Shown here: positions 6,601 through 31,597 of the stretch, piece after piece
Numbering within the stretch: position 1 is the first letter of the stretch
Layout of the letters: each line of letters starts with the position of its first letter
NCBI GenBank assembly: GCA_963798215.1
Contig: CAWCSP010000004.1
Span: forward strand, 339,880-403,879
DNA from: an uncultured Acidobacteriota bacterium
Lineage (GTDB): Bacteria; Acidobacteriota; Thermoanaerobaculia; UBA5066
Direction: 5' to 3'
Length of the DNA: 64,000 nucleotides
Position numbers and translations under genes: made by a program
Notes under the pieces: generated by a model
The model's database searches: none
What the model saw: the letters and a program-made list of their open reading frames with translations, nothing else
Told to the model about the DNA's origin: nothing

Positions 6601-6708
6601 GATCTTGAACTCGCGCATTTCGGCGCGGGCCTCGTGGAGGTCGAAGCCGAGAGCAATGGCTCCGCCCGCCGTGCCCGCTTTCAGGAAGGTTCTCCGCGTA
6701 AGGCCCAT
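3631..6708 (-). CDS. fdnG: Formate dehydrogenase-N/O alpha subunit, selenocysteine-containing (UGA at 6133-6135)
   Basis: Tat signal MGLTRRTFLK and CPYCAVSCG...LCPKG. The two track ORFs join in frame as QARV-[UGA]-HGPTVASLAATFGRGAMTN, the canonical FdnG/FdoG Sec context. Confidence 0.95.
6095..6132 (-). promoter_or_regulatory. Bacterial SECIS element
   Basis: Apical hairpin GGUGGCC-AGUCU-GGCCGCC (6103-6121) begins 11 nt after the in-frame UGA and has GU in the loop, as in E. coli fdnG/fdhF. Confidence 0.85.
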
Positions 6709-6937
6709 GGCCGCCCCTCCTTCTGTTTCGTCCGGGGCCCTAGCAGAACTCCGGAAGGGGGCGGCTGTCAAGACTCGTTCTCAGGAGCGTTTACGCGCCG
6801 CCGAGCGCCTGAAATTTCTTCGGCCTCGATCTTGCTCCCGACGAACCGGTAGGCGACCGCGAACGCTGTCCCTTGCAGCATTTGCCCATCGAGGGCCGCC
6901 GCGTCTCGCGCGCGCCTCCCGAAAAAGGAGAAACGTC

Positions 6938-11041: not shown

Positions 11042-12103
11042 GCGGGCACCTGCTGGCTGATGCAGTGGAAGGCCCCGCCGCCCTCGAGGAGCTGCCGGGC
11101 GGGGACGGACACGGCGCGGCGGCCGGGGAAGAGCCGCGCCGATCGCGGCGCGGGCCGGCTCGTCGTTCGGGACGCCGTAGGCGGGAACGACGACGGTCGT
11201 GTTCGCGATGTAGAAGTTCACGTAGCTCGCGGGCATGACCTCGCCGTCCCGGCCCGTCACGAGGCCGGGCGACGGGATCGCCGTGACGTTCAGCCCTCGC
11301 CCCGCCGCGTCGCGCATCTTCGCGAGGTCGCGCGCGATCTGGAGGAGTACCGTGCGGTTCGGGTCCGCCGCGTCGGCGGGGGACATGCACACGACCTCGC
11401 CCGGCGCGGTGAAGCGCGCGATCGTGTCGACGTGCCCGTCCGTGTGGTCGTTCAGGAGGCCGTCGCCGAGCCAGAGGACGGTCGAGACGCCGAGCGCGTC
11501 CTTCACGCCGTTCTCGATCGCGCTCGCGGACATCCCCGCGTTGCGGTTGCGGTTCAGGAGGCACTGCCGCGTCGTGAGGCACGTCCCCTCCCCGTCCACC
11601 TCGACCGAGCCGCCCTCGAGGACCCACGGGAAGCGGTACGCGGGCAGGCCCGAAGCCTCCGCGACGCGCTCCGACACCGCGTCGTCGTGGGGAAGGACGT
11701 ACTTGCCGCCCCAGCCGTTGAATTTGAAGCACGCCGCCGCGCGCTCGTGGCCGGGGCCGGCGAGGAAGACGGGCGCGGTGTCGCGCAGCCAGATGTCGCC
11801 GAACGGGATCACGAAGAAGCGCGCGCCGAGGCCCGCAAGCGCCGTCGCCGCGCCGCGGCCCTTCTCGTCGTCCGGCACGAGGACGTGAAGCCGCTCGCCG
11901 CGCGGCGAGCCGGACAGGTCGCGGTCCGCGATCGCCGCGGCGAACTGCGTGAAGGCGTCGCGGACGCCGGGGAGAGCGTCCTCCCACAGGTCCTCGTGGC
12001 TCGGCCATGCGAGCCATACGGACTCGTGGCGGTCCCATTCGGCGGGCTGGCGGAAGCCGGCCGCGCGGGGCGTCTCCCCCGGCGGCCGCGGCGGCGCGGG
12101 CAT
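11038..12103 (-). CDS. aguA: Agmatine deiminase, with a one-base frameshift near 11134
   Basis: [24 protein letters not shown] and ASYVNFY motifs. The catalytic end [14 protein letters not shown] lies in another frame after GCG-G-CTC. Confidence 0.88.
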
Positions 12104-12230: not shown

Positions 12231-14102
12231 ATGACGCCGGAGTTCGACCACTACACGATTTCCCGCGTCCTCGGCGAGGGGGGGATGGGGCTCGTCTACC
12301 TCGCGAGCGACCGGCGGACGGGACTGCCCGTGGCGATCAAGGTCATGTCCGGGCGCGCTCTGGACCCCGAGCTGCGGGCCCGGTTCCTGAAGGAGAACAG
12401 GATCCTCGCGGGTTTGAACCACCGGAACATCGTGCGGTTCTACGAGGTCACGGAGTCCCTCGAGGGCGTTCTCTCGATCGTGATGGAGTACGTCGACGGC
12501 GTCGACTTCCGCGCCTTCGAGGGGCGGCCGTTCCCCGAGCTCCTGCCGCTCATGATCCAGGCGCTCATGGGCCTCGCGTACCTGAGGAGCCAGAACATCC
12601 TTCACCGGGACCTCTCGTCGAACAACATCTTCGTCACGCTCGAGAACAGGACGCGCGTCACGAAGATCCTCGACTTCGGGGTCGCGAAGATCCTGCAGGA
12701 GCAGGCCGCGGACGGCGACGTGAGGACGCGGACGGGTCAGTTCCTCGGCAAGTTCGCGTTCGCGTCGCCGGAGCATTTCTTCCCGTCCGAGATCGACTGG
12801 AGGAGCGACGTCTACTCGCTCGGCGTCATCTTCCACCGTCTCCTGACGGGCAGGCCTCCGATCACCGTGGCGCGCAAGTCGAACTACTTCGACTGGATGA
12901 CGGCCCACCAGAAGGAGAACGCGTTCGAGGTCCTCGCGCCGCCCGACGCCCCGCCCCTGCCGGACGCCCTGCGAAGCGTGGTGAGGCGGATGCTGGCCCG
13001 GAACCGGGAGGACCGCCCCCAGAGCTACGAGGAGATCCTCCACGTCTTCGACCGCATTCAGCGGGGTCTCCCGTCCGATCTCGAGCCGAGTCCCGAAGAG
13101 CTTCGGACGCTTCCCCCGCCTGTCGAGGGGAGGATCGGCTCGTCGGGGAGCGGGAGGAGCGGGCCCACGATCTCGCCGTCGCGGCTGCCGACGCCCGGCG
13201 CCGGCTCCACCCCGTCGGCCCCCGGGGAACTGGAACGTCCCGCGCCCGTCGAGGCCTCCCAGCAGAAGCGCTGGCCCGACCTCGACGCGGCCGAGTCGCA
13301 CACCGAGCGCTTCGTCGCTCCGTCCCCGGCCCCTTTCCCCGGGGTTTCCGCCGTGCCCGCGGTACTCCCCGGCCCGCCATCGTTGCCCCTGGAACCCGAC
13401 GTCGATGCGTCCTGGCCCGGTGGAAATCCGGCGAGGACGGAGCTGCTTCCCCCGCCGGCGCCGCTCGACTCGACGAAGACGGCGACGACCGTGACGTCCG
13501 CGGAAAAGGAGGCGCCCCCGGAGATCCCGATGTGGACGGGAGGCGCGGCGAAGGACTCGCCGCCAGAGCCCGCCCGCCCCGCGCCCCCTCAGCTCGAGGA
13601 GAAGACGGAGCGGCTCGACGACGTGATCGAGAAGCTGAGGCGGCAGGCGCTCGTGGAACCTCTTCCGCCGGTCCCGGTCCGGCCGTCCGCTGAGGCTCCG
13701 CCTCCGCCGCCTCCACCGGAGCCCGTGCGGCGCCCCGAAGCGGAGCCCGCCCTCCCGCGCACCGCCGAACGCGCCCCGGCGCCGCCCGCGAAACCCGCCC
13801 GGCGGCTCGTCGTTTACGGCGCACCTCCGCCGGCGGTCCCGACCCCGCCGCCAGCGGCGCCGCGGGCCGTCGTTCCGGCGGCGCCCGCCCCCGCGCCGGA
13901 CGGGGCCGATCTCCGGGCGCGCCGCGTCGGCATCGCGCTGATCGTCGCGGCCATCGTCGTCCTCTTCGCGGCCGTCCTGTGGGTTCTGATCTCTCTTCTG
14001 CGCGGCCCCGGGGCGGGCGAGTCGCGCTCGAGCCGTGACGCCGGCCCGCCACCGTCCGTCGCCGCGGCGGACCCTGCATCCGTTCATTCCGAATCCGCAT
14101 GA
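12231..14102 (+). CDS. Hanks-type Ser/Thr protein kinase with Pro-rich linker and C-terminal TM (PpkA-like)
   Basis: LGEGGMGLVY, VAIK, HRDLSSNN, DFGVAK, ASPE and DVYSLG motifs; TM VGIALIVAAIVVLFAAVLWVLISLL. Confidence 0.9.
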   Translation: MTPEFDHYTISRVLGEGGMGLVYLASDRRTGLPVAIKVMSGRALDPELRARFLKENRILAGLNHRNIVRFYEVTESLEGVLSIVMEYVDGVDFRAFEGRPFPELLPLMIQALMGLAYLRSQNILHRDLSSNNIFVTLENRTRVTKILDFGVAKILQEQAADGDVRTRTGQFLGKFAFASPEHFFPSEIDWRSDVYSLGVIFHRLLTGRPPITVARKSNYFDWMTAHQKENAFEVLAPPDAPPLPDALRSVVRRMLARNREDRPQSYEEILHVFDRIQRGLPSDLEPSPEELRTLPPPVEGRIGSSGSGRSGPTISPSRLPTPGAGSTPSAPGELERPAPVEASQQKRWPDLDAAESHTERFVAPSPAPFPGVSAVPAVLPGPPSLPLEPDVDASWPGGNPARTELLPPPAPLDSTKTATTVTSAEKEAPPEIPMWTGGAAKDSPPEPARPAPPQLEEKTERLDDVIEKLRRQALVEPLPPVPVRPSAEAPPPPPPPEPVRRPEAEPALPRTAERAPAPPAKPARRLVVYGAPPPAVPTPPPAAPRAVVPAAPAPAPDGADLRARRVGIALIVAAIVVLFAAVLWVLISLLRGPGAGESRSSRDAGPPPSVAAADPASVHSESA

Positions 14103-14751: not shown

Positions 14752-15932
14752 CACGGGGACCGGCGGCCGCGCGCTTCGGGCTCGGCCTCGACGACATCGA
14801 AATCGGCGAGATGGTCGGCCGGGGCGGCTCGGGAGAGGTGTTCGCGTCGCGTCACCACAGGACCGGATCCCGGCTGGCGGCGAAGATCTATCCCTTCGAC
14901 CGGATGGACCCCGCCTTCCGCCCGCGTGAACGGTTCCGGCGCGAGTGCCGGATCCTCTCGCGGATGGAGCATCCGGCGTTCCCGGCGCTCTACGGCTGCG
15001 GCGAGGAGGAGGACGGAAGCACCGGCTGGGCGTTGATGGAGTGGATCGAGGGCGTGCCCCTCTCGGCCCATCGCTCCGCGCCTCTCCACGAGATCGTTCG
15101 CCTCGCGCACGGCATTGCCTCGGCGCTCGACGCCCTGCACGTCCAGGGAGTCCTCCACCGCGACATCGCGTTCGACAACGTCCTCGTCGAGTCCCGGCGC
15201 TTCGGCCTCAACCCGAGGCTGATCGACCTCGGCATCGCGAAGGACGTCGCGTCGCACGAGGACCTCACGATGGCGGGCGCATTTCTGGGTCGCGTTCCGT
15301 TCGCGTCGCCGGAGCTTCTCGGCGGCGAGGGGGCCGCCGGCCTCGTCGACCCTCGCAGCGACGTGTTTTCGTTCGGCGTCCTCCTCTACGAGTGGCTCTC
15401 GGGGAACCCGCCGTTTCCCGGCGAGACGCCCGAGCGCGTCCTGAAGGCGCAGAAGAAGCGTGCGGCGCCGAAGTTGGTGCCGAGGGAGGACGCGGGCGAG
15501 GCGGGCGAGGCTCTTTCGGCGTTCGTCGAGAGCCTCCTCGAGACGGGAATCGAGAACAGGCCGACCTCCGACGCCGTCGTCAGGCGGCTGGGAGAGTTCC
15601 GGACGCTCTTCCCGCGCCCGGCTCCCGAGCCCGACGGGGCGCCGGCCTCCGTGTACCGAACGCCGTCCGTCGGTTACGCGCTCCTGCCGAGGCGCTTCGA
15701 CGCCGCTCCGGCGCTGCCCAGGCTGCGGGCGGTCTTCTTCCCGGAAAGCGCGCCCCGCGAAGAGCCGCCGCACGACGGGGCGCGGCCGGCCGCGCGGCCC
15801 GTTCTCCCGGCAACGGGCGATCCGGGCGGGCTCGGCTCGAGGCCCGGATTCGGCGGGATGGTCCTCGCCCTCGGGATCCTCGCGTTCGTGGCGGCGTGCG
15901 CCCTCGCGGCGTTCCTCGTGTTCAGGCGCTGA
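14748..15932 (+). CDS. Ser/Thr protein kinase with C-terminal TM
   Basis: VGRGGSGEVF, LAAK, HRDIAFDN, DLGIAK, ASPE and DVFSFG motifs. GTGA start/stop overlap. Confidence 0.85.
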   Translation: MTRGPAAARFGLGLDDIEIGEMVGRGGSGEVFASRHHRTGSRLAAKIYPFDRMDPAFRPRERFRRECRILSRMEHPAFPALYGCGEEEDGSTGWALMEWIEGVPLSAHRSAPLHEIVRLAHGIASALDALHVQGVLHRDIAFDNVLVESRRFGLNPRLIDLGIAKDVASHEDLTMAGAFLGRVPFASPELLGGEGAAGLVDPRSDVFSFGVLLYEWLSGNPPFPGETPERVLKAQKKRAAPKLVPREDAGEAGEALSAFVESLLETGIENRPTSDAVVRRLGEFRTLFPRPAPEPDGAPASVYRTPSVGYALLPRRFDAAPALPRLRAVFFPESAPREEPPHDGARPAARPVLPATGDPGGLGSRPGFGGMVLALGILAFVAACALAAFLVFRR

Positions 15933-17379
15933 CGCTTGCCGTCGGAACGGGCCGCGGAGCTGGCGCAGCCGGCGCCTTTCCCGTGGGCGCGGACGGAACG
16001 GGCTCGGGAGTCGCCGTGTCGGTCGCGGTGGGCGTCGGGGTCTGCGTCGCCGTCGGTGTTACGGTGGGCGTCGGCGGGTACTCCAGGGGCTGGAGCCCGT
16101 TGAAGGCGGCCGGCGGCCGGAACGACGGCTCCGCGGTCGCGCGCGGAGACTGCGCGACGGAGCGCGGCTTCGCCTGCGCGCGCGCATCTCGCGCCTCGGC
16201 CTCGCGCGCCGAAGCCGACGCGGGCGGTGCGGCGGGGAGCGGGGTCGCGGTCGGCGCCGCCGTCGGTGGGGGAACCGGCGATGGGGCCGGAGCGGCGGCG
16301 GCCGGCACCGGCGGCTCCGGCGCCGGAGAAACGGCGGCCGGCGGTCCCGGCACGGCCGCGGGTCGCCTGAGGTAGAAGCCGACGCCGGTGAGCACGGCGG
16401 CGACGACGAGCGCGGCGCCGCCGATGGCGGCGAGCCGGCCGCCGCGCGAGCGCGGCACGGGCGCCTCCGCTGCAGGTCCGGAAGCCGCGCCCGCGACGAG
16501 CATCCCGTCGTCGCCCGCGGGCGGGGGCGGCGCGCCGACGCCCGCCTGGCCGGTCCGTCCGAGCCCGAGGCGAGCGGGGGTTCCCCGGGAGAGGAGCGCG
16601 ACGGAGACGTTGTCCTTCGAGCCGGCCTCGAACGCGAGGCGGTAGATCTCGGCGGCCGTCTCCTGGAGGCTGCCCGTCGTCTCGATCGCCGTGAGGAAGC
16701 GCTCGGCCTCGAGGACGTCCGTGACGCCGTCCGTCGTCAGGACGACCGCGTCGCCGGGCCCGAGCGTCACGTCGCTGCGGACGTCGGGGACGACCTTCTT
16801 CTCCTGGCCGAGACTCCGCGTGAGGGCGTGCGCGAAAGGATTGCTCGCGTCGTCCTCGGGGGCGACCGAGTCGGAGCCGAGGGCCCGCCGCTGCTCGGCG
16901 AGGGCAGTGTGATCCACCGAGAGCTGCCGGACCTTCAGCCCGGAGACGAGAAAGACCTTGCTGTCGCCGATGTTCGCGACGACGAGGCGGTCGTCCGCGA
17001 GGACCATCGCGAACGCGAGGGTCGCGCCCATTCCCTTTTGCTCGGCGGAGGCCTTCCCGCGCTCGTAGATCTCACGGTTGACCTCGGCGATCCACTCGCG
17101 AATCTCGGCCTCGATCGCCGCCGCCGGCGTTGACGCCGCGTCCGCCCGCCCGGCGAAAGCCTGGATCTTCTCCCTCAGGATCTCCACGGCGAGGCGGGAG
17201 GCGACCTCACCGGCGTTGTGGCCGCCCATGCCGTCGCTCAGCACGGCGAACGCCCGCAGGGCGGAGCCCGGCGGAAGGACCGCGAGGATCGCGGCGTCCT
17301 CGTTCGACTCGCGGCGTCCCTTCTCGGAGAGACCGCCGGCGAGATACCGGGACGGGACCGTGCCCGCGTCGGCGCTCAC
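15922..17379 (-). CDS. PP2C/PPM protein phosphatase with TM and Pro/Thr-rich tail (PppA/Stp1-like)
   Basis: GRRESNEDA, SDGMGGHNAGEVAS, NIGDS, LTRSLG, TDGV and SKDNVS motifs. Confidence 0.9.
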   Translation of the reverse strand: MSADAGTVPSRYLAGGLSEKGRRESNEDAAILAVLPPGSALRAFAVLSDGMGGHNAGEVASRLAVEILREKIQAFAGRADAASTPAAAIEAEIREWIAEVNREIYERGKASAEQKGMGATLAFAMVLADDRLVVANIGDSKVFLVSGLKVRQLSVDHTALAEQRRALGSDSVAPEDDASNPFAHALTRSLGQEKKVVPDVRSDVTLGPGDAVVLTTDGVTDVLEAERFLTAIETTGSLQETAAEIYRLAFEAGSKDNVSVALLSRGTPARLGLGRTGQAGVGAPPPPAGDDGMLVAGAASGPAAEAPVPRSRGGRLAAIGGAALVVAAVLTGVGFYLRRPAAVPGPPAAVSPAPEPPVPAAAAPAPSPVPPPTAAPTATPLPAAPPASASAREAEARDARAQAKPRSVAQSPRATAEPSFRPPAAFNGLQPLEYPPTPTVTPTATQTPTPTATDTATPEPVPSAPTGKAPAAPAPRPVPTASVSA

Positions 17380-17388
17380 AGCGGCCTC

Positions 17389-18258
17389 TCAGTCCTCGCG
17401 ATAGGTCATGACGACACCGCCGATCTCGATGCGGTCGTTGTCCACGAGGCGCCGCGAGGCGTTCTCCTCGATCTCCTCGCCGTTGACGCGGGTCGGGTTG
17501 GTCCGGGCGTAGTTGATGAGGGACCAGGTGCGCCGGTCGAAGACGAGCTTTGCGTGCTTGGCGGAGACGGACTCCGGGAGGAGCTGGATGTGGCGGTACG
17601 GCGGTCCGGGGTCGCGGCCGATCGTCGTCTCGACGCGATCGCCGGGGGCGGTCCGGTAGATCCGGAGCTCGGTCTCCCGGTCGCCCTCGTCGAGGAGGAA
17701 GCGTCCCGGCAGCACGTCCAGCGCGCCGGCCGGAGGCTGGCCGGCGTGGACCAGGTCGCCGTCGGTCCATCCCGCAGGCGCGGGCCCTTCGGGAACAGGC
17801 GGCGGGGACGCGGAGCGCGACGGGACGTTGATCACGACTGGCTTTTTCAGAAGGACCGCGAGCACGACGACGAGCGTCGCGATGAGCACGAGGACGCCGA
17901 TGCCGAGCAGGATCAGGACGCTCGACGGCAGACCTCCCGGCTCGGGGACCGCGGATCGTTCCGCCGCGGGGCGGGCGGGCGCCGCCGCCGGCGCCACCGG
18001 CGCCACCGGCGGCTGAACGGCGGTGGCCTCGGGCGCAGGCGGGGGTGCGGCGAGCGGCGCGACTTGCTGCGGCGCGACCTGCTTCGGCGCGACGGCGGCC
18101 GGCGTGGGAGCCTCGCTCGCCGCAGGCAGCGGAGGCAACGGCGGAAGCGTGGGAATCGGCGTCTGCGCGCCCGCCACGGCCGGCGACAGGAGCAAGGCGG
18201 TGGCAGCCGCGGCGAGGAAGATCCGCTTCGCGAGGTTGCGGCCATTACGCATCGTCAA
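17389..18258 (-). CDS. Membrane-anchored FHA domain protein
   Basis: Signal peptide, Pro/Ala-rich segment, TM, then FHA motifs IGR...SVSAKH...TNPTRVNG...DRIEIG. Confidence 0.82.
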   Translation of the reverse strand: MTMRNGRNLAKRIFLAAAATALLLSPAVAGAQTPIPTLPPLPPLPAASEAPTPAAVAPKQVAPQQVAPLAAPPPAPEATAVQPPVAPVAPAAAPARPAAERSAVPEPGGLPSSVLILLGIGVLVLIATLVVVLAVLLKKPVVINVPSRSASPPPVPEGPAPAGWTDGDLVHAGQPPAGALDVLPGRFLLDEGDRETELRIYRTAPGDRVETTIGRDPGPPYRHIQLLPESVSAKHAKLVFDRRTWSLINYARTNPTRVNGEEIEENASRRLVDNDRIEIGGVVMTYRED

Positions 18259-18316: not shown

Positions 18317-19135
18317 TCACGCCGTTGGCCGAGGCGGGAGCCGGACCGCCGCGAAGTGCTCCGGGTCCGGGCGCTCCTCCGGGCGCCACGAAAGGCCGAG
18401 CCGGACGAGCTCCCTCGGAACGTCGGCCCCGGCCGACGGCCGGGAAGGCACGGCGAAGGCGGACAGGGCGACGGTCTTGTCGGCGTCCTCCGGTGCCCCG
18501 TCCCCGGCGAGGCGGCCCTCGAGGAGCACGTGGACCTGCGCGGCCAACCGGTAAGCGAGCGCGGCGCGGAGAGAGCGGCCGCGCGCCCCGGTGCGCATCT
18601 CCGGGGCGACGAACGGCGACCCTTCTTCCTCCGCGGCGTCGAGTCCCCGGAGTCCGGACGCGCCGTCGTCGCCGGGCCGCGGCTCGCAGAGGAACTCGTT
18701 CACGCTCAGGTGCCGCGCGTCGAGGCGCGCTCCTTCGCGCAGCCGCTTCAGCTCGTGGAGGGGGATGTGGACGCCGGCGGTGCCGCACTCGAGAGCTGCG
18801 ATCTGCACCTCGGCGAGGGCCGCGATCGTGCCGCGGCGGGTGCGGTGACCGCCGCCGGCCACGGGCTCGGAAGTCTGGAACGCGATGAATGATCGCCCGG
18901 CCACTTCGGTCGACCCGAAGTCGAGGACCCGGGGGAGCAGCGGATGGTCGAAGCGGGCCGTCGCGGCGTAGATCGCGTCCACCGCGGCCGCCGCAGAGCG
19001 CGACGCCGGGTCGAAGCCGTCGACGCGGATCCACGCGGCGACTTCGTCCGTCTCGCGCACCGCGCGGTAGCGGAAGGGCAAACCGGTCTGCTCGGGCCCG
19101 TCGAGCAGCCGGTATCCCGGAATCCACGAGGGCAT
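18317..19135 (-). CDS. Degenerate protein-kinase-like protein (putative pseudokinase)
   Basis: IPGYRLL, ARFDHPLLPRVLDFG, FVAPE and LSWRPEERP echo Hanks subdomains, but there is no Gly loop, VAIK or HRD. Confidence 0.55.
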   Translation of the reverse strand: MPSWIPGYRLLDGPEQTGLPFRYRAVRETDEVAAWIRVDGFDPASRSAAAAVDAIYAATARFDHPLLPRVLDFGSTEVAGRSFIAFQTSEPVAGGGHRTRRGTIAALAEVQIAALECGTAGVHIPLHELKRLREGARLDARHLSVNEFLCEPRPGDDGASGLRGLDAAEEEGSPFVAPEMRTGARGRSLRAALAYRLAAQVHVLLEGRLAGDGAPEDADKTVALSAFAVPSRPSAGADVPRELVRLGLSWRPEERPDPEHFAAVRLPPRPTA

Positions 19136-19237
19136 CGTGCCGGAATCTTAGGCCGGACCGCCGAACGGCCGGACCCTGGGGATTTTCCTTGCTTCCGGCG
19201 GGTGCGGGCGGTACATGTGCGGGCAAAGGGGCGATTC

Positions 19238-19984
19238 ATGGAGCAGGCGCGCGTCCGGGTCGGGCTGAAGGTCTGGGACGACCAGGTCGAGATGGATCTG
19301 ACGCTCCCGTCGGGTCCGGCCCGGCTCGATTCGCTCCTGCCCGTCTTCCAGAGGGTCGCGGACGGGTTCGTCGATCTCGCCGTGGAGCGCGCCCGCGCGG
19401 AGGGACGAACCGTCTCCTGCCGGAAGGGGTGCGGCGCGTGCTGCCGTCAGCTCGTCCCGATCTCCGAGGTCGAGGCGCGGCGCATCGGCCGGCTCGTGGA
19501 AGAGCTCCCCGAGCCACGACGGCGGGAGGTGAGGGAGCGCTTCGCGCGGGCCCGCGAGCGCCTCGCCGCGGCGGGCCTCCTCGCGAAGCTCGAGGACCGG
19601 GAGAGCTTCGCGGACGGTGACTCTCTCTCGTTCGGGCGCGCGTATTTTCAACTTGGGATCCCGTGTCCGTTTCTGGAGGACGAGAGCTGCTCCGTCCATG
19701 CCGACCGGCCGATCGCCTGCCGTGAATACCTCGTCACGTCGCCGGCGGCCAACTGCGCGGATCCGAAGCCCGGGATCATCGACATGGTGGAGCTGCCCGG
19801 CAAGGTCTGGACGGCCCTGGCGCGAGCGGATGCGGCTGGCCGGGCGTCGCGCTTCATCGCGTGGGTGCCGCTCGTTCTGGCCCCCGACTGGGCGTCGACG
19901 CATCCCGACGAGTCCGAACCCCGTCCCGTCGAGGACGTCTTCCGCAGCGTCCTGAGTCACTTCGCCGGACGCGGGGGCGCCTGA
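19238..19984 (+). CDS. YkgJ-family (CxxxCxxCC) cysteine-cluster protein
   Basis: CRKGCGACC, CPFL...CSVH..RPIACR motifs. Confidence 0.85.
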   Translation: MEQARVRVGLKVWDDQVEMDLTLPSGPARLDSLLPVFQRVADGFVDLAVERARAEGRTVSCRKGCGACCRQLVPISEVEARRIGRLVEELPEPRRREVRERFARARERLAAAGLLAKLEDRESFADGDSLSFGRAYFQLGIPCPFLEDESCSVHADRPIACREYLVTSPAANCADPKPGIIDMVELPGKVWTALARADAAGRASRFIAWVPLVLAPDWASTHPDESEPRPVEDVFRSVLSHFAGRGGA

Positions 19985-20158
19985 GGGTGCGGCCCGGCCG
20001 GGGGGCCGGAAGCCGATGGATTACAATTCGACAGTTCAAGTCGGATTTGAGCGCTCCGTCGCACCGCCTCGGCGGGCCGGAGGTCTCGAAGGAGCAGGCA
20101 TCTGGCTCGGAAACGTGAAACCGGGTCGGCCCCGAAAGAGGACCGGAAAACTCCGACG

Positions 20159-21127
20159 GTGAAAGCCGCGGCCGTGCAGCTTCCCGTCGAGCCGCCCGTC
20201 ACGCTCGCCCGGCTGCGCCACTACCGGAAGCTGACGAAGGCGGTGACGGCTCATCTGCGCGCCCAGCTCGAGGCGACTCTCGAGACGCTGACCCCTCTCT
20301 TTCACGCCGAGACGGTGTTCGGCGACTACGTCCAGAAGAGCATCCTGTCGGTCAAGCCCGACCCGGAGTCCGGCCCGCGGGGTCAGCTCGGTCCTGACCG
20401 GTGGGGCCGCGGGTCGGAGCTCGTCGTCAAGAGGGACGCGGCCCTCCCCCCGACGGTGAAGGAGCTCCAGGACGCGCGGAAGTACGCGAAGGCGAACATC
20501 TCCCTGAAAGAGGCCGTCAAGGGTGCCGATCGCGCGTTCCACGATCTCGAGAGCCTCTACGACTCGGTGGCGAAGAAGAAACCCTACGATCTCGGCGTCG
20601 GCCTGACGCCGCCGCTGCCCATCAACACCTCGGCTCTCGAGATCCTTCCGTTCGACTATCCCTTCGTCGCACGCTCGGATCGCCAGACGAAACGCGTGAT
20701 GGTCACGGCCCCGCTCACGTGGATCGTGACGTACGCGGGGTTCTCCCTCGCGCGTCTCCGCGCCCTCATCGCGGACCCGAATCGCTCGCGCGACGAGCTC
20801 CAGCGCGTCCTGACGCACCACCTTCTCCTGCACGTCGTCCTGGAACGCAAGGACGGGTTGCGCGGTCTCCTTCAGGCGCTGAACTTTCCCGTGAAGACCG
20901 AGACGGTGCCGGAATTCGGCGAGTTGCCCCTGACGATCGTCACGTCGGCCGTCCGGACGGAACGCCCGTCCGACGACGTCATTCTGGAAAGCACAGACCT
21001 GTCGGGGGTGGATGCGGCGGAGGAGATCGTGCGCGTCACGAACGTCGCCGGAATGACCGACGCGCGCCGCGCGCGCTTGCTCGAAATCGTCGAAGCCGAG
21101 AAGAGCGGGTCAGACGGAGACGCCTGA
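20159..21127 (+). CDS. Hypothetical protein, paralog A
   Basis: Aligns by eye over its length with 21160-21936 and has a ~55-aa insertion. TACAAT at 20022-20027 upstream. Confidence 0.75.
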   Translation: MKAAAVQLPVEPPVTLARLRHYRKLTKAVTAHLRAQLEATLETLTPLFHAETVFGDYVQKSILSVKPDPESGPRGQLGPDRWGRGSELVVKRDAALPPTVKELQDARKYAKANISLKEAVKGADRAFHDLESLYDSVAKKKPYDLGVGLTPPLPINTSALEILPFDYPFVARSDRQTKRVMVTAPLTWIVTYAGFSLARLRALIADPNRSRDELQRVLTHHLLLHVVLERKDGLRGLLQALNFPVKTETVPEFGELPLTIVTSAVRTERPSDDVILESTDLSGVDAAEEIVRVTNVAGMTDARRARLLEIVEAEKSGSDGDA

Positions 21128-21159
21128 AGCGCGCCGCGACGAACGGAGGATTGATCTAG

Positions 21160-21936
21160 ATGGACGAAGGGTACGATCTCCAGAAACTCCGGTCGCTCCG
21201 GAAGCTGACGCGGGCGATCGCGGAATCGCTCCGCACGGAGCTGAAGGAGCATCTGGGCACCGTGACCCTCCTGCTCCGTCCCCGCACGGTCCTCGGCGAC
21301 TTCGTCGAAGGCAGCGCGAAGGGAGAAGTCAAGGGCTCGGACGCCGCGTTCCGGGATCTGCGCGGCCGGTACGAGGCCGTCGCGGGGGGGCGCCCGTACG
21401 GGCTCCCGAAGGAGCTCGCGTCCCCCATCGAGCTCCTGAGCTCGAACGTCGAGCTCGTCCCGCTCGATTACCTGCACGTCGCGAAGTCGGGCTCGGAGAG
21501 CAAGACGATCACGGTGACGCAGCCGCTCAAGTGGATCCTCACGTACTCGGGCCTCGCGCCGACGCGCCTGAGGGAGCTCATGGCCGCGAAGATCCCGGAC
21601 GCCGGCCAGGTCAAGAACGTGATCCTGCACGCGCTCGTCCTGGAGACCGTCCTCACGCGGCAGCCGGGGCTTCTCGCGGTCTTCGAGGCGCTCCGGTTCC
21701 ACGTCGTCACGGAAAAGCTCCCGGGCCTCGGGGAGGTTCCGGTCACGTGCATTTCCTCGAGCGTCCGGACCGTGCGGCCTCCGGACGACGTCCTCATCGA
21801 GAGCACCGAGATCTCGGGCCTCGATGCGTTCGAGGAAGTCGTGAACGCCGAGGACATCGAGAACATGAAGGACCCGTTCCGCGAGAAACTCCTCGAGGTC
21901 ATCAAGGAGAACGCGCCGGAGGCCCTCAAGGGTTGA
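21160..21936 (+). CDS. Hypothetical protein, paralog B
   Basis: GGAGG RBS. Shares RKLT.A, PL.WI.TY.G and RP.DDV..EST..SG.DA.EE with paralog A. Confidence 0.8.
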   Translation: MDEGYDLQKLRSLRKLTRAIAESLRTELKEHLGTVTLLLRPRTVLGDFVEGSAKGEVKGSDAAFRDLRGRYEAVAGGRPYGLPKELASPIELLSSNVELVPLDYLHVAKSGSESKTITVTQPLKWILTYSGLAPTRLRELMAAKIPDAGQVKNVILHALVLETVLTRQPGLLAVFEALRFHVVTEKLPGLGEVPVTCISSSVRTVRPPDDVLIESTEISGLDAFEEVVNAEDIENMKDPFREKLLEVIKENAPEALKG

Positions 21937-21964
21937 CGCCGGCCGCGGGTCTGCCGGCGGCGAT

Positions 21965-23506
21965 CTAGCTCTCGAGGAGCGCGAGCCGGCTCACGTGGCG
22001 GAAGTTCAGGGCGACTGCCGCTTCGACGTCCGCCGCGAGCTTCGCGGCTTCGGACCCGGCCGCTTGCAGGGCCGCCGCCATCTCCCGCTCGATCGCCGGC
22101 CGACCGTGCGTGCCGTCGAGAAGCTCGAGGAAGGTCCTGACGAGGGGATCCACCTGAACGCTCTGATGTTTGAGGTTCGTGACCATCGTTGCCGAGCGGG
22201 CCTGGAGCCGGGCAAGGGCGCTCGCCCGGGGGCGTTCGGAAATCTCCGTGACGAAGGGGCAGGCCGCGCGGTGGAGCCGGGTCACGTTCGCGCCGTAAGC
22301 GTTGAGGAGAAACCGGAACAGACGCGCTTCGTCTTCCGTCGTGACGGGCCGGCCCCCGGCCGCCGAGACGCGCGCACGGGCGGCCTCGACGAGCTCGGGC
22401 ACCGGGATCCAACGCGGCCAAAGCAATCCGAGCTCGAGGAAGGCCGCCTTCGAAAGGGGATGAGGGGTCGTCACGTCCCCTTCCTTTTCGGTCTTGAACG
22501 TCACGGCCTGGTCGGACGCGATGTCGGGATTCGCGGGCTCCGGCCGCGTGTTCGCGCTCACGCAGAGCGACCGGAGGACGTCCGGGTCGGGCTGCGTCGC
22601 GGCGGCGGCGTCCTCCCGACAGAGCAGGGTCTGCCGGAAGCGCCGGAAGATGAGGAAATCCCGGTACTGCTGCTGGAGGACGAGGTTCGCGGCTCCGACC
22701 TCCAGCAGGAACCGGCCGGCGGGGCTGCCGGCGTCCCAAACGGTCATGTCGCAGTAATCGGCTTCCGACAGGAACTTGAGGCGGTGCCGGCTCGCGCGCG
22801 TCACGAAGTCGACGAACAGAAGAGGTTCGTTTTCGTCGGAGAGATCGTCGTGGAACAGGACGGCGTCGGGCTGCCTGCCCTGGTGCTCGAGCGTGTCCTT
22901 CAGGATGGCGGAGAAGAGCGGCCGTGGCGGCGCGGCCTCCGCGAGGAACCTCACGAGACCCCTCGCCTGGCTGATTCGCTCGGCGGGTTCCTCGAGGTCC
23001 CGCACGTGCCACCGCATCATCTGGCGCATCGCGTTCCGAACGTGACACCCGGGAAGGGCGTTGTAGCTCACGAACGCGACGCCGTTCGGAGCGAGAGTTT
23101 CGGAGGCGATCGCGAGGACCCGTTCCTGCACGGGCGGCGGCACCCAGGAGTAGAGGCCGTGCGCGATCACGTAGTCGAACGTGCCGAGGCCCGACACGTC
23201 GAGAAGGTCGGCGTGGCGGAGCGTCACGTTCGCGAGGCCGAGGGCGGAGATCTGCTCCTGTCCCTGCGCGACGGCGGAACGCGCGAAATCGAGGCCGAGA
23301 AAGGTGCTTCCCGGAAGAGCGTACGCCATCGGGATGAGATTGCCCCCGTCGCCGCAGCCCAGCTCGAGCACGCGGCAGCTCCCGGGGGGAGGGGCGGGGA
23401 GGCCGTACAGCGCCGCGATCGTCGCGAGGCGATCCGGATGGGTCTGCGAGAACGGCAACCCGGGGTACGTGACCGCGTCGTACGCGGTCGGCTCTCTTTC
23501 CGCCAT
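21965..23506 (-). CDS. Class I SAM methyltransferase with MethyTransf_Reg domain (Rickettsia PKMT-like protein-lysine methyltransferase)
   Basis: YD...YP....THP..LAT.A.L.G, VLELGCGDGGNLIP, FDYVIAHGLYSWVP, GVAFVSYNALPG and QQYRDFL..RRFRQTLLC match the PKMT1/2 pattern as I recall it. Confidence 0.8.
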   Translation of the reverse strand: MAEREPTAYDAVTYPGLPFSQTHPDRLATIAALYGLPAPPPGSCRVLELGCGDGGNLIPMAYALPGSTFLGLDFARSAVAQGQEQISALGLANVTLRHADLLDVSGLGTFDYVIAHGLYSWVPPPVQERVLAIASETLAPNGVAFVSYNALPGCHVRNAMRQMMRWHVRDLEEPAERISQARGLVRFLAEAAPPRPLFSAILKDTLEHQGRQPDAVLFHDDLSDENEPLLFVDFVTRASRHRLKFLSEADYCDMTVWDAGSPAGRFLLEVGAANLVLQQQYRDFLIFRRFRQTLLCREDAAAATQPDPDVLRSLCVSANTRPEPANPDIASDQAVTFKTEKEGDVTTPHPLSKAAFLELGLLWPRWIPVPELVEAARARVSAAGGRPVTTEDEARLFRFLLNAYGANVTRLHRAACPFVTEISERPRASALARLQARSATMVTNLKHQSVQVDPLVRTFLELLDGTHGRPAIEREMAAALQAAGSEAAKLAADVEAAVALNFRHVSRLALLES

Positions 23507-23584
23507 GAGGGAAAGCGATCATAGACGGAGTCCTCGCGGGCTCTTACCCGCGCTAGACTCGGGCGGCAATTCGAGGAGGCCGCG

Positions 23585-25078
23585 ATGTCCAAGCGCCCGC
23601 CGTCCGGCGACGTCGACGTGAGGATCGGGACCGGGACCCAGGCGTCGCCGGAGCCGCTCGACCCCGACACGCCGTTTCGCCTCCTCGTCCTCGGTGATTT
23701 CGGTGGCGCGGGCGCCAGCCCGCTGGGCACACGGACGCTGCATGCCGCCGACCTTGACGTCCTCGAGGAGGAGATGGGCCGTCTGCAGGTGACGCTGGAC
23801 GTGCCTCTCGGGGGCGGGCGACGCGCGAGCATCCAACTCCGGGATCTCGACGATTTTCACCCGGATCGCCTCCTCGAGAAGGTCGACGCCCTTTCAGCTC
23901 TGGGCGAGACTCTCGAGCGTCTCGAGAATCCCCGGACGTTCGCCGAAGCGGCGCCCGAGGTGCGGGCATGGGCTGGCGCCCCGCCGCAGCGCGAAAAGGC
24001 GGTCGAAGCGGCCGCCGGTGGTGGTGGGGACGACATCGTGAGCGAGCTTCTCGCGGGCGCGGCGCGGCGGCCAAAGCCCGATTCCGCGTTCGAGGCCGAG
24101 CTGAAGGCGATCGTGAGGCCCCATCTCGCCCCTGACGAGGACGCCGATCTGCCGCGCCTGAGGGATGCGGTGAACGAGGCGCGCTCCGGCCTCCTCCGCG
24201 CAATCCTCCGCAATCCACGATTCCGGGAGGTCGAGGCGGCGTGGCGCGCTCTCGATCTTCTCGTCCGCCGAGCCGGGGACGAGTCCGTCCGGATCTTTTT
24301 TCTCGACGCGTCGCGAGAGACTCTTCGCGCCGACCTCACGAGTCACGACACGCTCTCGGGCACGGGCCTCTACCGGCGGCTTGTCACGGAGACGATCGAC
24401 ACGCCGGGAGCCGAGCCGTGGGCCGCCATCCTCGGGCTCTACGAATTCGGGCCGACGATCGCCGACGCGGCCTTCCTTTCGCGCATGGCCAAACTTGCCC
24501 GCGCCGCGGGCGCTCCATTCCTGGCGGGCGCCCTTCCGGAATTCGTCGGCTGCGCGTCGCTTGCCGCGACGCCGGATCCCGACGACTGGAAGAGGTCCGA
24601 GGATGACGGAACGGTCATCTGGGAGGAGTTACGGGCCCTGCCGGAGGCCGCCTGGATCGCCCTCGCCCTCCCGCGTCTAATGCTGCGCCTGCCGTACGGA
24701 GCGAAAACCGACCCGATCGACTCGTTCCCGTTTGAGGAGATTCCGGGCGTGCCGGACCATGAGGCCTACGTCTGGGGGAATGCGGCGATCGCGTGCGCCC
24801 TCTCTCTTGCGGGCGCTTTCGAGCAGGGCGGGTGGGACCTCAGGCCCGAGACGGCGGCGGAGATCCCGGGCCTGAGCGCGCACGTCTTCCAGGACGGTCT
24901 CGAAACCCGCGTGACGCCGCCGTCGGAGGTCGTCCTGACGATTCGCGCCGCGGAGAAGATCCTCGAGGCCGGGCTCGTTCCGGTGCTGTCGCTCAAGGGA
25001 AGCGAAAGCGTCCGCATCGCGCGCCTCCAGCCGATCGCAAGCTCTCTCCGCATCCTCGCAGGACGGTGGGGAGGCTGA
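23585..25078 (+). CDS. TssB-like/TssC-like single-chain sheath fusion protein
   Basis: N-terminal PFRLLVLGDFG...LDDFHPDRLLEKV (TssB-like). C-terminal ILRNPRFREVEAAWRAL, APFLAGA, LRLPYG and YVWGNAA (TssC-like). Confidence 0.8.
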   Translation: MSKRPPSGDVDVRIGTGTQASPEPLDPDTPFRLLVLGDFGGAGASPLGTRTLHAADLDVLEEEMGRLQVTLDVPLGGGRRASIQLRDLDDFHPDRLLEKVDALSALGETLERLENPRTFAEAAPEVRAWAGAPPQREKAVEAAAGGGGDDIVSELLAGAARRPKPDSAFEAELKAIVRPHLAPDEDADLPRLRDAVNEARSGLLRAILRNPRFREVEAAWRALDLLVRRAGDESVRIFFLDASRETLRADLTSHDTLSGTGLYRRLVTETIDTPGAEPWAAILGLYEFGPTIADAAFLSRMAKLARAAGAPFLAGALPEFVGCASLAATPDPDDWKRSEDDGTVIWEELRALPEAAWIALALPRLMLRLPYGAKTDPIDSFPFEEIPGVPDHEAYVWGNAAIACALSLAGAFEQGGWDLRPETAAEIPGLSAHVFQDGLETRVTPPSEVVLTIRAAEKILEAGLVPVLSLKGSESVRIARLQPIASSLRILAGRWGG

Positions 25079-25116
25079 CGGGCTTCGAATCCGGGGCGCG
25101 ACCCCAAGGAGGTCTC

Positions 25117-26001
25117 ATGGCGCTCAAGTCCCCGCGTTTTGCGTCCAATTCCCGGCTGCAGCGCGCCGCCGAAGATCGACCGACGCTGGGCTCGGGCGAG
25201 CACGGCGAAGCCACGAGGCTGGTGCAGCAGGCCCTGATCGATCTCGGGTTCGACCTGCCGATCTCGACCCGAAAATTCGGATCACCGGACGGAATCTACG
25301 GACACGAGACGGTGGCGAAGGTTCGGGAGTTTCAGGCCAAGTTTCACCTTCACGTCGACGGAATCTCGGGCCGACACACATTGGAAAAACTGGATGAGCT
25401 GCTGCCGACCGCCGGCACGCCGCTTCCGCCCCTGCCGGTCTCGGGCTTCACGCACAAGGTTCGCTTGCACCTGCGGTCGATCGACATGCCCAGGGTTCCG
25501 GAGTTCAGGCAGCTGAAGGTCATGGAGGAGGTCTTCGCCCAATACGCGATCGAGATCGAAATGGCGAGCGGGGAGAGTGTGCTGCTGAAGCCGGGAGTCG
25601 CGCTCACGCTGACCGTCGTAGACGGTGATTGCAAATGGGATCAACTGTCCGACGAGCAGCGCCTCCTGGAGAATTCCGGCAGCAAGCAGGGAGTGGGGCC
25701 CAACGACATCACCGTCTACTATGCGACGACTCTGCGGGAGACGAACGGAAACACGCTGCAGGGATGCGCGGGGAGCGAGCAGAGCCGGCCGGCGGTCATG
25801 ATTGCGTCGGACGCGGTCGACAAGACCACGATGGCACACGAGGTGGGCCACATCCTGCTGGGCTCGAGTTTCTCGCCCGTTCACGATATCGACGCCAGGA
25901 ACCTCATGTGCGAGGCTCCCATCTGCACGGGCAATCCGGCCTACCTGAACGACGCGCAACTCAAGGCGATCCGTTCGAGCCGGTTCCTCAGGCCCGTATG
26001 A
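25117..26001 (+). CDS. Peptidoglycan-binding domain plus zinc metallopeptidase
   Basis: LVQQALIDLG...DGIYGHET...FQ...VDGISG..T (PG_binding_1) and AHEVGHILLG...H....NLM (metzincin-like). AAGGAGG RBS. Confidence 0.8.
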   Translation: MALKSPRFASNSRLQRAAEDRPTLGSGEHGEATRLVQQALIDLGFDLPISTRKFGSPDGIYGHETVAKVREFQAKFHLHVDGISGRHTLEKLDELLPTAGTPLPPLPVSGFTHKVRLHLRSIDMPRVPEFRQLKVMEEVFAQYAIEIEMASGESVLLKPGVALTLTVVDGDCKWDQLSDEQRLLENSGSKQGVGPNDITVYYATTLRETNGNTLQGCAGSEQSRPAVMIASDAVDKTTMAHEVGHILLGSSFSPVHDIDARNLMCEAPICTGNPAYLNDAQLKAIRSSRFLRPV

Positions 26002-29344: not shown

Positions 29345-31597
29345 TCACGATGACTTGTACCCCGTCTTCGCGTCGTCGGCGGCGGCCGGTTCGTGTTTCT
29401 TGGCCTCCGGCGGGTCTTCGGGCGAGGCGGGATTCGAGCCGGCACCCGAACCGGCCGCGCCGCCGGAGTTGATCAGGACCATCGTCCCCTGGATGGAGAC
29501 CCCGGCAGGGCCGATGTCGATGAAATTGCCTCCGACCTTCAGGCTGATTTGCATGCCGGCCTCGATGATGAGGGTCGTCCCGGCCTTCAGGTGAATGGCC
29601 TGACCGGCGTCGAGGGCGTGGTTCTGAGCGACTTTCTCCTGCTGGTCCCCGCCCACCGTCAGGCTCTGGCCTCCATCCACCGCCTCCATCCGACCACCCT
29701 TGACGTGGAGGTGCTCGTCCTTTTCGACGAGGGCCTTCCGGGCTCCCTTCACGACGGTCTGCAGCGCCTCCTCGCCCACCGGCTCCGTCCCGACGGTGAG
29801 GAACATGGAACCACCGACGATCTGGGAATGTTGCTTTCTGGCGCGAAGGCCGACGTTTCCATAGACGAGTTCCTTGTAGTTACCCCAGGTTTTTCCGTCC
29901 TTCTCTCCACCCACGGTCAGGTGCTTGTTGCTCCCCACGCTCTCCATCGACTCGCCCTTCACTCGGGTGTCCATGTTCCGTTCGGCGTGAAGGAAAACCT
30001 GCTCCTTGCCCTTCGTGTCGTCGAAGCGCCACTCGTTGAACCCTTCGCCCCCGAGCGTCGTGTTCGACTTGATCCCGGACACCTTGTTGTCGTTCTTGTG
30101 CTTGCCGTCCGGTCCGTCGCCGAGGTAGGGCGGCATCTGGTCGGAGTTGTAGACGGTTCCGACGATGATCGGCTGGTCCGGATCCCCTTCCAGGAAGTCG
30201 ACGATCACCTCCTGGCCGATCCGCGGCCAGAAGGAAGCGCCCCAGCGCCGACCCGCGACGGGCTGCCCGACCCGGACCCAGCACGAGCTGTCGGTGTCGT
30301 TCTTCCCCTCCCGGTCCCAGTGGAACTGGACCCGGACGCGGCCGTATTTGTCCGTGTAGATCTCCTCGCCCTTGGGCCCGACGACGACCGCCGTCTGGGT
30401 TCCCCTGACCGTGGGAATGGGCGTGACTCTTGGCGGACGGAAGGGCAGATCGACCGGGAAGCAAGAAAAGTGATTCTGGTAGGTGAAGCCGCCGACTCCG
30501 GAGCGCAGGTCGGCTGCCTCGGACGCGGAATGGCCGACCTGATAGACGACCCAGGCTCCGTCCCCCTCGAAATGGCGCTCGAGCGTGAACTTGTGGCCCG
30601 AGACGACCTGGCGGCAGTTGCTCGCGGCATGCACGAGGACGCTGGCGGACGCCTCGGCCTGCGCCCTGAGGTCCGTGGTCCGGGAGTTGTCCTGGAAGAT
30701 CTTCTGGATCTCTGCCGGCTGCTCGCCACCTGACTTGTTGATTCCGTCGAAGCGCTGGGCGTAGGCGCCAGGAAAGTCATAGAGCTCGAGCGGGGCATTC
30801 GCGGCGACTTTCAGCTTGTGGCTGGACTTGCCTGCGGTGACGGACGCCTGGATGGGCACCGGGGCCTCCGGGGCCTCGAGGTGCTTGTGGGGCAGCTCGA
30901 AGCAGTGGTCCCAGAGCGTCACCTTGCTCGAACGCAGCTCCTGCGCCTTTTCCCATGCATTGACGCGATCCTCCTCGCGAGTCCCGCCCCCGACGGCTTC
31001 GAAGATGAGCTTGCTCGGGCCCGGACTGATGTCCGAATGGCTTCCCGGCGTGTTCGCGATGACCATCTTGTGACTGCCGTCCGCGTGCTTGAAGAAGTAG
31101 TAGATCCCCTCTTCCTCCATGAGCCGGCTCGCGAAGGCGAAGTCGGACTCACGGTATTGCACGCAGTAGTCGCGGGGCTGGAAGGTTCCATTGATTTCCC
31201 AGGCGATGTCGAGACCCTTCAGGACTTTCTTCAGGATGTCGGGAATCGAAAGGTGCTGGAAGATCCGGCTCTGCGTCTTCCGGGACAGGAGGAAGGCCTC
31301 GGGCACGAGGTCCAGGAGGTAGCGCGTGAACGTTGCATCCCGCGCGCCCTGAGCGACGCGAAAGCAGACGCCGTTGATCCACCGTTTCGGGCCTCCCGGC
31401 AGACTGATCTCGGCGGTGACCTTCTGCCCGAGGAGGCTCTCAAAGGGAATCTTCGTGGCGTTCTCGGCGACACACTCGAGCTGGAAAAGGAAGGGCTGTG
31501 AAATCGCCTCGTGCCCGGAGAAGCCGCTCAGGAGGAGATCGTTCTTCCCGAGCGGCGTCTTGACGACGAGCCTGCGACCATCCTGCGTGTAGGCCAT
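29345..31597 (-). CDS. tssI: T6SS spike protein VgrG
   Basis: CVQYRESD..F.SRLMEEEGIYYFF, QTAVVVGP.GEEIYTDKYGRVRVQFHWDR and PRIGQEVIV.FLEGDPDQP motifs. Confidence 0.97.
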   Translation of the reverse strand: MAYTQDGRRLVVKTPLGKNDLLLSGFSGHEAISQPFLFQLECVAENATKIPFESLLGQKVTAEISLPGGPKRWINGVCFRVAQGARDATFTRYLLDLVPEAFLLSRKTQSRIFQHLSIPDILKKVLKGLDIAWEINGTFQPRDYCVQYRESDFAFASRLMEEEGIYYFFKHADGSHKMVIANTPGSHSDISPGPSKLIFEAVGGGTREEDRVNAWEKAQELRSSKVTLWDHCFELPHKHLEAPEAPVPIQASVTAGKSSHKLKVAANAPLELYDFPGAYAQRFDGINKSGGEQPAEIQKIFQDNSRTTDLRAQAEASASVLVHAASNCRQVVSGHKFTLERHFEGDGAWVVYQVGHSASEAADLRSGVGGFTYQNHFSCFPVDLPFRPPRVTPIPTVRGTQTAVVVGPKGEEIYTDKYGRVRVQFHWDREGKNDTDSSCWVRVGQPVAGRRWGASFWPRIGQEVIVDFLEGDPDQPIIVGTVYNSDQMPPYLGDGPDGKHKNDNKVSGIKSNTTLGGEGFNEWRFDDTKGKEQVFLHAERNMDTRVKGESMESVGSNKHLTVGGEKDGKTWGNYKELVYGNVGLRARKQHSQIVGGSMFLTVGTEPVGEEALQTVVKGARKALVEKDEHLHVKGGRMEAVDGGQSLTVGGDQQEKVAQNHALDAGQAIHLKAGTTLIIEAGMQISLKVGGNFIDIGPAGVSIQGTMVLINSGGAAGSGAGSNPASPEDPPEAKKHEPAAADDAKTGYKSS

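Follow-up and report, generated by a model that had tools for sequence, protein, structure and literature searches.

Members of one family of bacterial protein-lysine methyltransferases (PKMTs) have been characterised in two systems. The Rickettsia PKMTs methylate multiple lysines of OmpB and of other outer-membrane (OM) proteins (PMC8232902), and KmtA of Acinetobacter sp. Tol 5 modifies the trimeric autotransporter adhesin (TAA) AtaA at more than 130 lysines (PMC11784438). According to the text of the KmtA report, co-occurrence with TAA genes is seen in just 27 of 142 genomes; type VI secretion is not among its topics. Here we describe a further family member, encoded in a 64,000-nucleotide stretch of DNA, hereafter the window, from an uncultured Acidobacteriota bacterium (contig CAWCSP010000004.1, positions 339,880 to 403,879). 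The source genome has a high GC content, and close homologues bear the labels Thermoanaerobaculia or Acidobacteriota. The window carries a complete type VI secretion system (T6SS) locus, within which lies a gene (21965-23506, minus strand) for a 513-amino-acid OM-PKMT-family methyltransferase homologue, referred to below as the window PKMT. The reading that we favour is that this enzyme is active and T6SS-dependent, and that it would methylate lysines of a T6SS-associated protein in the cytoplasm of the producing cell; taking all parts of that reading together, we regard it as evenly poised between right and wrong.

Family membership of the methyltransferase

The window PKMT is matched by PF10119, a dimerisation or 'regulatory' domain (residues 214-297, E = 3.6e-18, 66.5 bits, cut-off 25.5), and by PF21782, which represents the middle and C-terminal winged-helix domain (E = 1.7e-16); a class I S-adenosylmethionine (SAM, or AdoMet) methyltransferase domain is also present (Methyltransf_12). 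Among PDB entries, it aligns with Rickettsia PKMT1 (5dnk, E = 6.7e-68) from residue 7 to 474 and with Rickettsia PKMT2 (5doo, E = 5.2e-62) from residue 7 to 476. An earlier sequence-only reading of the window had pointed to an N-terminal pattern like that of these two enzymes; the resemblance proves stronger than was claimed, as the match spans residues 7-474. That reading had also considered that the enzyme might group with small-molecule methyltransferases, but PKMT1 and PKMT2 are by far the best matches in the PDB, the next-best having E = 2.7e-11. Residues D73 and H116 align with Asp102 and His146 of Rickettsia PKMT1 (RpPKMT1) and are both invariant in 28 homologues; in RpPKMT1, these two residues hydrogen-bond AdoMet (PMC11784438). 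We identify the gene as encoding a member of the OM-PKMT family, rather than a small-molecule methyltransferase.

Genes of this family also occur in tandem. Three copies, with 71-73% identity to the window protein, were observed in genome G003 (locus L012, G003:C4:1282702-1287384), and two copies in G007 (L024, G007:C2); both genomes belong to the window's own genus.

Association with type VI secretion genes

We used TssK (PF05936) as the marker of a T6SS and called PKMT homologues at E <= 1e-20 in 401 evenly sampled Acidobacteriota genomes (227 genera; the phylum sample). TssK was found in 44 of these genomes and PKMT in 21, all 21 of which are TssK-positive, and PKMT was found in none of the 357 TssK-negative genomes. 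Counted by genus, all 10 PKMT genera fall inside the 28 of 227 genera that have a T6SS. The same pattern was found in a Pyrinomonadaceae-like family (f41; 121 genomes, 60 genera), with TssK in 55 genomes and PKMT in 28: all 28 PKMT genomes are TssK-positive, none of the 66 TssK-negative genomes has a PKMT, and the 17 PKMT genera all lie within the 29 of 60 that have a T6SS. Two unpublished genomes, G470 and G457, enter the f41 counts solely as TssK-positive, PKMT-negative rows. Within the window's genus (29 genomes), PKMT occurs in 13 genomes, all with a T6SS; G008 and G017 have the T6SS core without the gene block to which PKMT belongs, and the contigs of both end near vgrG.

This restriction to T6SS-positive genomes persists when the genes are unlinked: in f41 the two are often found on separate contigs or over 1 Mb from each other, and tssK and PKMT are separated by 1.7 Mb in G486 and by 1.1 Mb in G521, each on a single contig. 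The sequence-only reading had allowed that homologues might show no linkage to T6SS; occurrence in TssK-positive genomes only, in both sets, speaks strongly against this. Within Acidobacteriota, the prediction that PKMT is a T6SS-dependent gene is well supported by comparative genomics. In a tree of 43 PKMT sequences, built by a quick method with two partial rows dropped, the physically linked sequences require at least two origins, and the unlinked f41 sequences form a clade of their own.

Where PKMT is physically linked to T6SS genes, its placement takes several forms. In the window's genus the order is paralogue B (parB, described below), convergent PKMT and a sheath-like fusion gene, in 13 of 14 loci. 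In Blastocatellia, by contrast of order, it is PKMT, a convergent MTS-type methyltransferase (about 505 amino acids, PF05175) and parB; this arrangement was found at seven loci, each with a full-length PKMT, and the five genomes tested among them are all TssK-positive. In G089 (L117, G089:C10), PKMT is sandwiched by tssF and tssE, and the two unknown genes beside it are unrelated to the paralogues of the window (hhalign probability 0.1-0.2). In G530 (L181, G530:C215), it lies 490 nucleotides 5' of tssK on the same strand, at a site occupied in relatives by a gene for a YkgJ-type protein. The neighbours of linked PKMT genes in these clusters, and in the Gemmataceae clusters described next, are core or baseplate genes, rather than sets of vgrG, adaptor and immunity genes.

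Placement of PKMT in T6SS clusters extends to the Gemmataceae, in which three gene orders were confirmed with Pfam. In G547, a single strand carries tssA-tssB-tssC-hcp-tagJ-YkgJ, a PF05175 methyltransferase with DUF7059 and DUF7782, and then PKMT; G623 shows the order hcp-YkgJ-PKMT and has two more YkgJ paralogues close by; and G649 has tssK, tssA, PKMT and vgrG. Among 151 Gemmataceae genomes, PKMT was found in 105 and TssK in 79: 67 have both, 12 TssK only, 38 PKMT only and 34 neither (odds ratio 5.0; genome quality not given), so that PKMT is present in 67 of 79 TssK-positive and 38 of 72 TssK-negative genomes. At the level of sequence, family membership, the conserved AdoMet-binding residues, the restriction to T6SS-positive genomes in Acidobacteriota and recurrent placement in T6SS clusters are established.

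Five non-acidobacterial genomes carry the paralogue family; a full-length PKMT is present in three of these and a remnant with a stop codon in one. At the betaproteobacterial locus L058 (958-1606, minus strand; G549:C19:225664-226041), PKMT fragments lie in different frames, one with a TAA stop, and probably represent a decayed copy; a paralogue, a kinase and a PP2C gene are found at the same locus. PKMT is accompanied by a methyltransferase of 500-580 amino acids in seven of seven Blastocatellia-type modules (L033:8013-9524, minus strand; L025, L045, L066, L073, L077 and L080) and in one Gemmataceae T6SS gene run (L204:10012-11751, minus strand); this methyltransferase matches PF05175 (MTS), and its Gemmataceae form has DUF7059 and DUF7782 in addition. 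One query of the window's genome, which is 90% complete, did not find an MTS-type methyltransferase.

Substrate and competing explanations

In the mechanism that we favour, the window PKMT would act as a SAM-dependent protein-lysine methyltransferase in the producer's cytoplasm, on a protein that belongs to the T6SS or travels through it. Candidate targets would be the tube protein Hcp, the spike protein VgrG, sheath-type proteins or cargo, with a regulator less likely. As characterised relatives multiply methylate exported proteins, the most economical proposal is that this enzyme would do likewise to a T6SS protein or its cargo. The YkgJ-type protein (Fe-S or Zn) and two paralogues encoded beside PKMT are, on this reading, further T6SS accessory proteins, belonging in this genus to the same variable block. 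The sequence-only reading had suggested that one or two lysine-methylating enzymes modify T6SS parts: a PKMT family member tied to T6SS remains from that suggestion, whereas a methylase role for the YkgJ-type protein is unsupported, and the analysis identified no substrate.

The most lysine-rich protein of the locus is the Hcp encoded at 41925-42416, with 16 Lys and 1 Arg. A recognition motif, KX[GAVI]N, gave zero or one match per protein and was disregarded; no consensus recognition sequence is known (PMC11784438). A search of titles and abstracts, in which subscription journals and supplements were not covered, found no literature on T6SS together with a lysine methyltransferase of this family, nor on methyl-lysine in Hcp.

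Several observations weigh against the reading of PKMT as a modifier of T6SS proteins. The Fisher and hypergeometric values for the association of PKMT with T6SS are uncorrected for phylogeny and overstate it, because related genomes are not independent, and there is no control family of similar prevalence. Physical linkage is uncommon in the phylum sample, where T6SS genes lie within about 9 kb of PKMT in just one (G089) of 20 fetched regions, a place in G318 having been left out; one more PKMT gene, in G102, is at a distance of 13.7 kb from tssK. Unlinked PKMT loci have heterogeneous neighbours, among them polysaccharide genes, toxin-antitoxin genes and an S-adenosylhomocysteine (SAH) hydrolase gene, and the neighbours that they share are lineage-specific only. 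In Gemmataceae, PKMT is enriched with T6SS without being exclusive to it. Finally, f41 genomes with a T6SS show no difference in the Lys content of Hcp, TssB, TssA, TagJ, TssK, TssL and TssF whether or not they have PKMT; K/(K+R) of Hcp, for example, is 0.89 with PKMT and 0.90 without it. ClpV shows a weak trend in the opposite direction (P = 0.03, 11 versus 7, uncorrected). As the Lys content of core proteins is independent of the presence of PKMT, it indicates no particular substrate.

The alternative that survives best is that PKMT methylates ordinary surface or outer-membrane proteins, such as adhesins, autotransporters or porins, its tie to the T6SS being no more than a common lifestyle, a common regulon or residence on the same mobile island. 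The two characterised systems have type V secreted proteins as substrates, not T6SS proteins (PMC8232902, PMC11784438), which counts for this alternative and also against a T6SS substrate; 19 of the 20 fetched regions of the phylum sample are without T6SS genes, and TssK was not seen in 38 of the 105 PKMT-positive Gemmataceae genomes. It does not, however, lead one to expect the absence of PKMT from all 357 and 66 TssK-negative Acidobacteriota genomes, nor its repeated insertion among T6SS core genes (tssF-PKMT-tssE, PKMT-tssK and tagJ-YkgJ-MT-PKMT), and no autotransporter or adhesin gene is found among the conserved neighbours of PKMT. We consider this explanation unlikely.

Strict dependence on T6SS would be expected equally of an effector, and PKMT might itself be delivered into prey or host cells, there to methylate target proteins. 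Its patchy distribution and the tandem copies (three in G003, two in G007) fit such a role, as does its position in G649 near vgrG and an FHA-DUF4123 adaptor-like gene. Against this, the protein lacks both an N-terminal extension and any known delivery domain, its alignment with the cytoplasmic PKMT1 starting at residue 7, and no small immunity-like gene is conserved nearby. Moreover, several lineages place PKMT among baseplate or core genes, away from sets of vgrG, PAAR and adaptor genes, and in one lineage the SAH hydrolase gene lies two genes 5' on the same strand, which suits activity on the producer's side. We find an effector role rather more doubtful than action on surface proteins. Lower still, we think it improbable that PKMT modifies a firing regulator (Fha, a kinase or a TagF-type checkpoint) as a methylation switch added to the threonine-phosphorylation pathway, because, although the block in the window directly adjoins kinase, PP2C and FHA genes and FHA or kinase genes flank PKMT modules in Blastocatellia and Gemmataceae, the family members studied are described as multi-site modifiers of abundant exported proteins and not as switches, and PKMT is also found 1 Mb from any such regulator.

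Modification of a T6SS protein or its cargo in the producing cell is the reading that we retain, and if it is true, a new post-translational layer would be added to a widely studied nanomachine, and the OM-PKMT family would gain a third substrate class after OmpB and AtaA. In Rickettsia, methylation of OmpB protects the bacterium from ubiquitylation. A broader and more tentative proposal, to which we give clearly less than even weight, is that a dedicated T6SS methylation layer exists in at least two phyla (Acidobacteriota and Planctomycetota). PKMT would in that case multiply methylate the injected tube, spike or cargo before firing, often together with a YkgJ-type Fe-S protein and the MTS methyltransferase of about 500-580 amino acids, and the modification might, by analogy with the shielding of OmpB, protect lysines from attack in the target cell.

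Accompanying genes and comparison with known systems

The sequence-only reading had described a YkgJ protein, two paralogues and a convergent methyltransferase inside the T6SS island and beside a sheath fusion gene, and all four genes lie where it placed them. The PKMT gene converges on that of paralogue B and is transcribed away from the sheath-like fusion gene. The four-gene block and the fusion gene are located between a part of the locus with kinase, PP2C and FHA genes (12.2-18.3 kb) and the T6SS core (29.3-56.6 kb). A scan of positions 19000-25300 for promoters and terminators gave no signal above shuffled background. As for the proposal that the four genes form a fixed cassette, outside the genus only 8 of 66 paralogue loci carry PKMT (one of them as fragments only) and 3 of 66 carry YkgJ, which does not agree with it; the YkgJ-type protein and the paralogues are no obligate partners of PKMT.

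The YkgJ-type cysteine-cluster protein (19238-19984, plus strand; 248 amino acids) matches PF03692 (E = 1.7e-7, 32.3 bits, cut-off 23), and databases label its close relatives 'YkgJ family cysteine cluster protein'. It has the motif C61-x3-C65-x2-C68-C69 together with C143, C151, C161 and C173, and all eight cysteines are invariant in 23 homologues. This subfamily too was found exclusively in TssK-positive genomes, with 17 of 17 such occurrences among the 401 genomes of the phylum sample and 26 of 26 among the 121 of f41, and at 10 of the 16 places retrieved (two more were left out) its gene immediately precedes tssK. Coupling between YkgJ and PKMT was considered and rejected: among T6SS-positive f41 genomes, 16 have both, 12 PKMT only, 10 YkgJ only and 17 neither (P = 0.18), and a YkgJ gene precedes tssK at 13 of 26 PKMT-positive loci versus 6 of 19 PKMT-negative ones (P = 0.24; 4 of 49 loci were not judgeable). 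The corresponding association in the phylum sample is strong (16, 5, 1 and 22) but is dominated by one genus. As coupling of the two is not significant within T6SS-positive f41 genomes, they are best treated as two separate T6SS-dependent genes.

We found no evidence that the YkgJ-type protein is itself a methylase. Its predicted structure (pLDDT 82.2) has no Foldseek match at E <= 1e-3, and three members of the subfamily have no NCBIfam match at E up to 10, the presence of a FliB model in that library being unconfirmed. The flagellin lysine methylase FliB binds a [4Fe-4S] cluster through an N-terminal CX4CX3CC motif; it is described as having no recognisable domain, and the PF03692 motif is termed merely 'similar' (PMC8598068). 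The sequence-only reading had called the cysteine cluster of the window protein related to that of FliB; this link is weak, and the two have only the type of motif in common, CX3CX2CC at residues 61-69 in the window protein versus CX4CX3CC in FliB. At the Gemmataceae locus L202 (G623:C124:10000-29900), three YkgJ-type paralogues were observed at 4186-4935, 8529-9320 and 15502-16287, and the T6SS cluster there also encodes a kinase-WD40 protein of 1292 amino acids.

Paralogue A (20159-21127, plus strand; 322 amino acids) and paralogue B (21160-21936, plus strand; 258 amino acids) are 36% identical (E = 2e-56), A having an insertion relative to B. Neither has a Pfam match above the curated cut-off or an NCBIfam match, and the 270 homologues of paralogue B at E <= 0.001 are all unnamed and without a Pfam domain. 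The AlphaFold model of paralogue B is confident (pLDDT 89.7), but a Foldseek search of the PDB gave no match at E <= 1e-3, the best VIA-align Z was 3.9 among 48,161 chains, and a search of the ESM Atlas gave no usable match. We mapped 80 paralogue loci from species-representative genomes with profiles built from the window proteins: 14 are genus-like, and the remaining 66 are spread over other Acidobacteriota classes, Gemmataceae and Proteobacteria. Of the 14 genus-like loci, 13 include PKMT and YkgJ as well as the paralogues, and the other is a 1.9-kb contig. Among the non-genus loci, 42 are 15 kb or longer; 36 of these have a T6SS core or sheath-like gene within 10 kb, and L027, L050, L054, L057, L060 and L088 have none. 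Several loci place paralogue B inside the core cluster, flanked by hcp and tagF. By these indications, paralogues A and B belong to a T6SS-linked family of no known fold. Paralogue B was rejected as an obligate partner of PKMT, being present in 3 of 10 PKMT-positive and 0 of 10 PKMT-negative T6SS-positive f41 genomes; as it is absent from 7 of the 10 PKMT-positive genomes tested, it cannot be a general substrate or partner. A complex prediction for PKMT and paralogue B gave no answer (score 0.00 in two runs, controls not folded).

The sheath-like fusion gene (23585-25078, plus strand) joins VipA and the VipB N-domain (PF05591, E = 1.6e-7; PF05943, E = 1.1e-57), has no PF18945 (VipB_2, the gp25-like C-domain) and is a second sheath-type gene besides the canonical tssB and tssC. 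At 10 distant loci it is the gene directly 3' of a paralogue-family member and, within the genus, occurs in exactly the 13 PKMT-bearing genomes. Just 3' of the fusion gene, the reading frame at 24793-26001 (plus strand, probable start at about 25118) encodes a PF01471 peptidoglycan-binding domain and a HEVGH zinc-protease motif, and its product is a candidate T6SS cell-wall effector.

The remaining genes of the locus were assigned with Pfam. The regulatory-type part comprises a Ser/Thr kinase (12231-14102, plus strand), a PP2C phosphatase (15922-17379, minus strand) and an FHA protein (17389-18258, minus strand). The T6SS core, with more FHA proteins, extends over 29345-56555 and is on the minus strand except for TagJ: VgrG (29345-31597), ClpV (31621-34347), TssG and TssF (listed between ClpV and TssC), TssC (37780-39264), TssA (39817-40917), TagJ (41043-41855, plus strand), two Hcp (41925-42416 and 42607-43140), TagF, TssM and TssL (listed between Hcp and TssK) and TssK (49550-51304). 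Between the FHA and YkgJ genes, 18317-19135 (minus strand) encodes a 272-amino-acid protein with no family match and with 2 Lys versus 31 Arg; no more than 13 of the 80 loci yielded relatives, essentially those of the window's own genus-like group. Immediately beyond the T6SS locus, 10190-12103 (minus strand) encodes a 637-amino-acid fusion of a PF04371 agmatine-deiminase-type domain and a PF00795 carbon-nitrogen hydrolase. A formate-dehydrogenase-type molybdopterin subunit (3631-6771, minus strand) is interrupted by one in-frame stop (...TQARV*HGPTVASL...); as this is the usual position of selenocysteine, the frame is probably one selenoprotein gene.

Compared with described enzymes, the window PKMT is closest to Rickettsia PKMT1 and PKMT2 ('OM PKMT R'), with which it shares the four-part architecture, the Pfam domains and the AdoMet-bonding Asp and His, and the tandem PKMTs, three in G003, recall the PKMT1/PKMT2 pair. 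Two RpPKMT1 residues with an effect on OmpB binding, Leu103 and Ile130, are replaced by Phe74 and Leu101 in the window PKMT. The settings differ: the Rickettsia enzymes modify the autotransporter OmpB in an obligate intracellular pathogen that, to our knowledge, has no T6SS, whereas the window PKMT is found in the T6SS locus of a soil acidobacterium. Salmonella FliB, which modifies an exported polymer, resembles the YkgJ-type protein in its Cys-rich motif ending in CC and its eight conserved cysteines (PMC8598068). As the spacing of the motif differs, PF03692 is described only as 'similar' and there is no NCBIfam match, homology between the two is unsupported. KmtA ('OM PKMT A') belongs to the same family as the window PKMT and offers a precedent in an environmental bacterium for one dedicated enzyme that multiply methylates an exported fibre protein; it groups in another sequence cluster and acts on a type V adhesin.

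For the T6SS itself, the threonine-phosphorylation pathway of the H1-T6SS (PpkA, PppA and Fha) is a known layer of post-translational control, and we know of no other covalent control of T6SS that is well described. Its modifying enzymes are likewise encoded in the locus, and the block in the window adjoins kinase, PP2C and FHA genes; that pathway acts by phosphorylation, whereas methylation is predicted for the window PKMT.

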